From the NCBI RefSeq assembly GCF_003334305.1, contig NZ_QOWS01000011.1: a stretch of 64,000 nt of DNA; one strand, written 5' to 3'. The stretch's first letter is position 1. The number at the start of each line of letters is the position of its first letter. The position numbers and the translations under genes were made by a program. The notes under the pieces are model-generated. The model saw nothing but the letters and a program-made list of their open reading frames with translations, ran no database searches and was not told where the DNA came from. Positions 1 through 582 of this stretch are shown here, one piece after another. The DNA is from Escherichia coli. GTDB lineage: Bacteria > Pseudomonadota > Gammaproteobacteria > Enterobacterales > Enterobacteriaceae.

Positions 1-153
1 TGACGGCGCTGTGTCTGGCATGCCTGCAATCCGGGAAACCGGACCAGGAAAAAACTTGCAGGCCATAACAGTATCTATCAATCTGCATTCTCACCGAACT
101 TACTCGAACGCCCACGTCTGGAAAGCCATCTACAAAAACTCCTGACCGATGCC

Positions 154-582
154 GTGAAAATGCGTGGGCTGATTGCGCCCGCCAGCAAAGAAACCCGTAT
201 TCCAAAATCGATATATGAAGGTATCCAGACCATTAACCGCAATCTGGTTTGTATGCTGGAGTTGCAAATCAATGCGTACTGGGCCACGCGCCCCAGCCAT
301 TTCGTGTTATTGAACGCGCAAAAACTTCGTGATACCCAGCACATGATGCAGCAAATACTGCTGAGCCTTGTTCATGCGCTGTACGAAGGTAATCCGCAGC
401 CGGTTTTTGCCAATACGGAAAAATTGAACGATGCTGTGGAAGAGCTGCGTCAGTTGCTCAATAACCACCATGACCTGAAGGTTGTGGAAACACCAATCTA
501 TGGTTATGTGTGGCTGAACATGGAAACGGCACATCAGCTTGAGTTGCTATCGAATCTGATTTGCCGGGCCTTGCGCAAATAA
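154..582 (+). CDS. hypothetical protein; by position probably the 3' part of a yeeA-like inner-membrane protein gene
   Basis: ORF track 142 aa (GTG at 154, ATG at 160); lies directly upstream of yeeX in the same orientation, as yeeA does in E. coli K-12; in-frame TGA at 1-3 so any upstream continuation needs a frame change; no motif recognised. Confidence 0.4.
   Translation: MKMRGLIAPASKETRIPKSIYEGIQTINRNLVCMLELQINAYWATRPSHFVLLNAQKLRDTQHMMQQILLSLVHALYEGNPQPVFANTEKLNDAVEELRQLLNNHHDLKVVETPIYGYVWLNMETAHQLELLSNLICRALRK

Follow-up and report, generated by a model that had tools for sequence, protein, structure and literature searches.

The 64,000-nucleotide stretch of Escherichia coli DNA analysed here (the window) almost certainly begins inside a copy of the IS110-family element IS621, which is inserted in the coding sequence of yeeA between nucleotides 553 and 554 and in the same orientation as the gene. 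The window opens within the last 74 bases of the element and continues into the 3' fragment of yeeA, and the full element probably lies upstream in the window's own genome, as it does in matching genomes.

The IS621 right end at the start of the window

String comparison shows that window 1-74 is identical, at 74 of 74 positions, to the final 74 nt of the IS621 right end (RE), which is 105 nt long as published (Durrant et al. 2024, Suppl. Table 1). Because the window opens within these bases of IS621, odd reading frames are seen at its start. The features in this region, all on the plus strand, are as follows.

1-74 (+): IS621 RE, last 74 nt; exact match to the published RE, which lies 3' of the recombinase coding sequence in identical genomes
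1-11 (+): hairpin loop TGAC (1-4) and 3' arm GGCGCTG(T) (5-12), just downstream of the recombinase stop codon
49-54 (+): A6 run, present in the published RE sequence too; not a yeeA frameshift site
56-61 (+): TTGCAG, likely -35 hexamer of a promoter re-formed only in excised circular IS621 (computed geometry)
68-74 (+): ACAGTAT, left-donor (LD) heptamer at the RE tip; published donor ...ACAGTAT-CT-TGTAT..., LD/RD assignment as in Durrant et al. 2024
75-76 (+): CT core dinucleotide; one copy in the empty site, one at each flank of the inserted element
77-582 (+): yeeA 3' fragment, nt 554-1059 (with the core, codons 185-352 and stop), collinear with K-12 yeeA
154-582 (+): mechanical ORF of 142 aa, in frame with yeeA, from GTG154/ATG160 to TAA

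The initial annotation of this DNA described the reading frames correctly: TGA stands at 1-3, the frame of the 154-582 ORF is open back to position 4 and stop-free from there to the TAA at 580-582 (frame 1), and frame 3 is stop-free from the window edge to the TAA at 66-68, an open stretch of 21 codons. It also placed an A6 run at 48-53; the run is present, with its true position one base further on. We estimate the chance of 24 stop-free codons (4-76) at ~0.3, calculated as (61/64)^24, and the open stretches in frame 1 (4-76) and frame 3 lie in non-coding RE DNA and are no longer than chance would give. The A-run, the TAA at 66-68, the frame-3 open stretch and the switch of frame are all non-coding IS621 RE sequence. 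The TGA at 1-3 belongs to the loop of the RE hairpin and is the stop codon of no gene. The whole hairpin is seen in PapM-36-2, a genome identical to this part of the window, where L001 5992-6012 reads CAGCGCC-TGAC-GGCGCTG, 23 nt past the recombinase stop codon; the predicted RNA fold has 8 pairs and -15.3 kcal/mol. The 3' arm is followed by no T-run in the sequence, and the hairpin is thus not a canonical intrinsic terminator. For the initial annotation, an unrelated gene ending at 1-3 would have counted against its reading, and PapM-36-2 comes close to this case: the unrelated IS621 recombinase gene lies just upstream, with its end at L001 5969, 31 nt short of the window, and the TGA is not its stop.

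The element is known to excise as a circle, and the RE-CT-LE junction of that circle, in which LE is the left end, re-forms a sigma-70 promoter across the core that drives a ~177-nt bridge RNA from LE; the -35 box of this promoter lies in RE outside the 22-bp donor (Durrant et al. 2024). Our computed geometry across the circle junction is TTGCAG, 17 nt and then TATTAT, the latter being in LE, and TTGCAG at 56-61 is likely to be the -35 box in question. The LD heptamer at 68-74 is recognised by the bridge RNA through its donor-binding loop (Durrant et al. 2024). No further IS621 pieces or canonical 11-mer targets were found across the 64-kb window.

The 3' fragment of yeeA

The product of yeeA (b2008) in E. 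coli K-12 is a putative FUSC-family inner-membrane transporter. Translation of window 76-582 gives K-12 YeeA residues 185-352 at 100% amino-acid identity, and the three nucleotide differences relative to K-12 yeeA are all synonymous. In matching genomes, PGAP labels the fragment a pseudogene ('incomplete; missing N-terminus'), from a start at 67 that reaches three codons too far into RE, the true boundary being at 74/76. The full 352-codon YeeA frame is absent, being interrupted at nt 553/554 by 1,279 bp, and two partial pseudogenes are annotated in the matching genomes.

By our count from the alignment, GTG154 and ATG160 are internal codons of K-12 YeeA (V211 and M213), and the 154-582 ORF is no more than the end of the disrupted gene, in its original frame. 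No sigma-70-like promoter is predicted in window 1-800, and inspection by eye reveals no obvious Shine-Dalgarno motif before 154 or 160 in CCGATGCCGTGAAAATG; neither a promoter nor a ribosome-binding site is thus evident for the 3' fragment itself. Presumably, the yeeA fragments are functionless. We also considered a hybrid outward promoter built on the RE -35 hexamer. In the integrated state, TTGCAG faces CAATCT at 17-nt spacing, with 2/6 matches to TATAAT, and given this match and the lack of promoter-like sites in the scan of 1-800, such a promoter is unsupported.

The element and its junctions in matching genomes

When window 1-1100 was compared by megablast with 5,426 complete E. coli genomes, matches over the full length were obtained at 100% identity, in which the first feature is a partial "hypothetical protein" and the next is tmaR (= yeeX). 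PapM-36-2 is 100% identical over window 1-1100, with window position 1 at L001 6001. The order of its features on L001 is sbmC, yeeA 5' part, IS621 LE, recombinase, RE, yeeA 3' part, tmaR and pdu operon, and the parts relevant here are given below with the PapM-36-2 annotation in quotation marks.

L001 4245-4796: "FUSC family protein, incomplete, missing C-terminus"
L001 4798-4988: IS621 LE, 191 nt, encodes the bridge RNA; identical to the published LE
L001 4989-5969: "IS110-like element IS621 family transposase"
L001 5970-6074: IS621 RE, 105 nt; identical to the published RE
L001 6067-6582: "hypothetical protein, incomplete, missing N-terminus"

The translated L001 recombinase is the published 326-aa IS621 protein, and the element measures 1277 bp, or 1,279 bp when one CT core is counted. 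LE, the recombinase gene and the yeeA 5' part were observed only in other genomes that are 100% identical to the window, and it is conceivable that the window's own genome has a truncated or rearranged element there. We identified the bridge RNA solely by identity to the published IS621 sequence; an Rfam search of the IS621 region gave no bridge-RNA family match at E <= 1, and there is apparently no such family in Rfam 15.

K-12 has an uninterrupted 1,059-nt yeeA between sbmC and yoeJ/tmaR. Relative to that locus the gene order sbmC-yeeA-yoeJ-tmaR is the same, whereas yeeA is interrupted after nt 553 and the window holds the 3' fragment only. In a base-by-base comparison, collinearity with K-12 yeeA runs on the left to nt 553 (L001 4797) and restarts on the right at nt 551 (window 74); the 3-nt overlap, TCT, consists of the IS621 CT core and one coincidental T. 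Both L001 and the genome of strain A7 have the flanks GGGTCT, then IS621, then CTATCAAT. The junctions can be written as GGGT-CT followed by LE, and RE followed by CT-ATCAA, and terminal inverted repeats are absent, as is any target duplication beyond the CT. The empty site reads AATCGGGTCTATCAA in A28 and K-12, with a single CT in GGGTCTATCAA in both. In the window itself, positions 1-74 and the CT are followed by the yeeA sequence ATCAATCTGC.

IS621 is a member of the IS110 family with a bridge-RNA-guided DEDD/serine recombinase (Durrant et al. 2024, Nature 630:984; Hiraizumi et al. 2024). Its published RE is identical over the 74 nt present in the window, and the matching genomes share with it the bridge-RNA-encoding LE, the recombinase of 326 aa, the RE, the CT core on both sides and the length of 1,279 bp. 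The element is IS621 itself and not a relative. The allele is a common one and already catalogued among the natural IS621 targets: the reconstructed 50-nt target AGTCTGACCGAGTATAATCGGGTCTATCAATCTGCATTCTCACCGAACTT of TBL_ATCGGGCCTAC_seq4 (Durrant et al. 2024, Suppl. Data 2) equals the yeeA left flank joined to the right flank in the window. Two single-base variants of seq4, seq119 and seq120, are listed in the same place, and the gene is unnamed there (Durrant et al. 2024, Suppl. Data 2). Our literature search found no paper naming IS621 together with yeeA, the allele being an unnamed supplementary sequence. Suppl. Data 2 also contains chimeric flank pairs, in which the yeeA left flank is combined with nine other right flanks (seq110-118) or other left flanks are combined with the yeeA right flank (seq23, 43 and 106). 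These pairs may reflect IS621-IS621 rearrangements that end at the yeeA copy in some genomes.

Neighbouring genes

Downstream of the yeeA stop codon, the 16-codon yoeJ (window 638-688, plus strand) precedes tmaR and is identical to K-12 YoeJ. The tmaR (yeeX) gene at 754-1083 on the plus strand is followed directly by the pdu (propanediol utilisation microcompartment) operon at 1184-15710 on the minus strand, at a position where K-12 has the CP4-44 prophage remnant. The last gene of this operon is of the EutP/PduV family, and neither pduW nor pduX is annotated in it. In PapM-36-2, L003 18238-21578 (approximately the same coordinates in the window) comprises a cobalamin riboswitch and a gene for a hypothetical protein of 145 aa, followed by cobU-cobS-cobT alone, a group that looks like a truncated cob operon. 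Between about 32800 and 51433, the window differs from PapM-36-2 and has, on the minus strand, three ORFs of 525-673 aa (32821-40041) and an ORF of 3,163 aa at 41942-51433. In PapM-36-2 the large gene near there is yeeJ (inverse autotransporter adhesin), which carries a frameshift and lies at 32951-40028.

Filled and empty alleles

With coverage of at least 80%, the right junction (window 1-150) is present in 202 of the 5,426 complete E. coli genomes; the left junction (L001 4720-4870) is likewise covered in 202/5,426. Strain M8 has the two junctions 1,281 bp apart, as expected. Carriers include the O104:H4 outbreak lineage together with many Shiga-toxin-producing (STEC), animal and environmental isolates. 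Among the matches listed, A7 is the closest complete genome over 25 kb, with 100.0% identity over window 1-25000, and it has the same structure as PapM-36-2, namely the yeeA 5' part, IS621 and the yeeA 3' part. At least five further genomes (A28, TUM1887, FCI51, H15 and '41') have the same 100.0% identity, but their match does not begin until window position 74. Of these, A28 was fetched, and its yeeA has 352 intact codons. When the 1277-bp element and one CT are removed from A7, the sequence becomes that of A28 yeeA with 0 differences in 1059 nt, and this base-perfect pair of filled and empty alleles excludes both a frameshift and an assembly artefact. SNPs of the IS621 copy in yeeA include C/T at IS position 938. 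The A28 sbmC (L005 1-441) is annotated as frameshifted, with a single indel relative to A7 ~140 nt into the fetched stretch that could be a sequencing error.

Other IS-bearing genomes, again among the matches listed, are only 99.6-99.7% identical to the window over 74-25000. That haplotypes so nearly identical differ in whether the yeeA site is filled or empty suggests that IS621 has inserted there repeatedly or been precisely excised. It is conceivable, if on balance doubtful, that this site is a natural secondary IS621 hotspot that has been filled repeatedly, or filled and then precisely emptied. One hint in this direction is a second natural locus (seq15; Durrant et al. 2024, Suppl. Data 2) with the same 11-mer, ATCGGGTCTAT. 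In a weaker variant, read-through or hybrid transcription from RE may alter how strongly yoeJ, tmaR or the C-terminal fragment of yeeA is expressed.

Target site and bridge RNA

The bridge RNA has one loop that pairs with the donor (the RE and LE tips) and a second that pairs with a target of 11 nt; recombination takes place at the CT core (Durrant et al. 2024). It encodes the target ATCGGGCCTAC (ATCGGGC-CT-AC), and the target usually used in nature, located in REP (repetitive extragenic palindromic) elements, is ATCAGGCCTAC (ATCAGGC-CT-AC), position 4 being tolerated as an rG:dT pair; of 173 experimental IS621 sites, 144 are in REP elements and 29 outside them (Durrant et al. 2024). Taking the guide positions from the library oligo template GCCGT-N9-TGGG...TTGC-N4-ATTT (Durrant et al. 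2024), we read the left target guide as ATCGGGCCT and the right target guide as GTAG. The yeeA site, ATCGGGTCTAT (ATCGGGT-CT-AT), is identical to the encoded target at 9/11 positions, with positions 1-6 and the core CT matched. The T that replaces C at position 7 would form an rC:dA mismatch beside the core, and the T that replaces C at position 11 would pair with the right guide as an rG:dT wobble. The site lies in the yeeA coding sequence, in codons 182-185, and not in a REP element; REP is the typical IS621 target and not a defining one. The yeeA copy thus differs from typical IS621 in its insertion into a protein-coding gene and in the T for C at positions 7 and 11. A bridge RNA reprogrammed to the yeeA site was considered and rejected: the LE of this copy is that of wild-type IS621 and still encodes ATCGGGCCT/GTAG, which means that a near-cognate site was used and not a reprogrammed guide.

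We propose that the recombinase was guided to yeeA by the LE-encoded bridge RNA, the donor loop of which would pair with RE-CT-LE of the excised circle while the other loop would pair with the near-cognate target, tolerated despite its two departures. Strand exchange at the CT core would then leave a CT on each side of the element. The insertion splits yeeA into a 5' fragment, which would encode 184 YeeA residues followed by 42 residues derived from the IS left end, and a promoterless 3' fragment (window 77-582). Since the element has the yeeA orientation, transcription from the yeeA promoter could read into LE.

Alternative explanations

The initial annotation suspected the 3' end of yeeA at the start of the window. 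That proposal stands in so far as 77-582 is yeeA and the gene is disrupted, but neither of the two mechanisms that it put forward does. One of these, a frameshift in a longer yeeA-like gene, for example at the A6 run and by mutation or base-calling error, has in our view hardly any probability. The arrangement of the frames invites it, frame 3 being open to the TAA at 66-68 and frame 1 from position 4 with a homopolymer between them, but K-12 YeeA residues 160-184 (...RIQLAKSLTEYNRV) are missing from all three frames of 1-76. Moreover, the A-run lies in the stretch of 74 bases identical to the IS621 RE, collinearity with yeeA stops at 74/77, and the absent 5' half of yeeA sits 1.28 kb upstream in matching genomes. 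The doubt cast on the base calls at the A-run is removed by the same run in the published RE sequence, and the extension upstream and alignment to yeeA that were suggested as a check yield, in matching genomes, the yeeA 5' part, IS621 and then the yeeA 3' part. A comparably negligible probability attaches to an assembly or window-cutting artefact in which yeeA and an IS copy were joined as a chimera. Such joins are a reasonable concern because IS copies are often misassembled and the window edge falls within the IS; nevertheless, the same left and right junctions recur in 202 independently finished complete genomes, and the comparison of filled and empty alleles is base-perfect.

The other mechanism, a gene start at GTG154/ATG160, would make the ORF an independent shorter gene expressing the C-terminal cytoplasmic part of YeeA (142 or 140 aa). 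We consider this very improbable, although somewhat less so than a frameshift or an artefact. The 142-aa ORF is intact, all three nucleotide differences from K-12 are synonymous, and read-through from the IS or the yeeA promoter is conceivable given that the hairpin downstream of the recombinase has no T-tract. Both proposed starts are, however, internal yeeA codons in what PGAP calls a pseudogene missing its N-terminus, neither is preceded by a recognisable ribosome-binding site, 1-800 has no sigma-70-like promoter, and the RE -35 faces CAATCT (2/6). The absence of decay fits a recent insertion equally well, and a near-identical haplotype retains the empty site.

Implications

With IS621 inserted in yeeA as the preferred reading, the start of the window should be annotated as "IS621 right end / yeeA pseudogene fragment" and not as a gene that is shortened or frameshifted. 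Through this insertion, a functional yeeA is missing from about 3.7% of the complete E. coli genomes (202/5,426, including the O104:H4 outbreak lineage), which implies that YeeA is dispensable in nature. The yeeA site is also a natural, mismatched non-REP target of a bridge-RNA recombinase that is under development for genome editing, and the closely related filled and empty alleles can be used to study insertion and excision dynamics. If the site is indeed a secondary hotspot, it would provide a natural read-out, in wild E. coli, of precise excision and of the off-target tolerance of the bridge RNA, as represented by the rC:dA mismatch next to the core.
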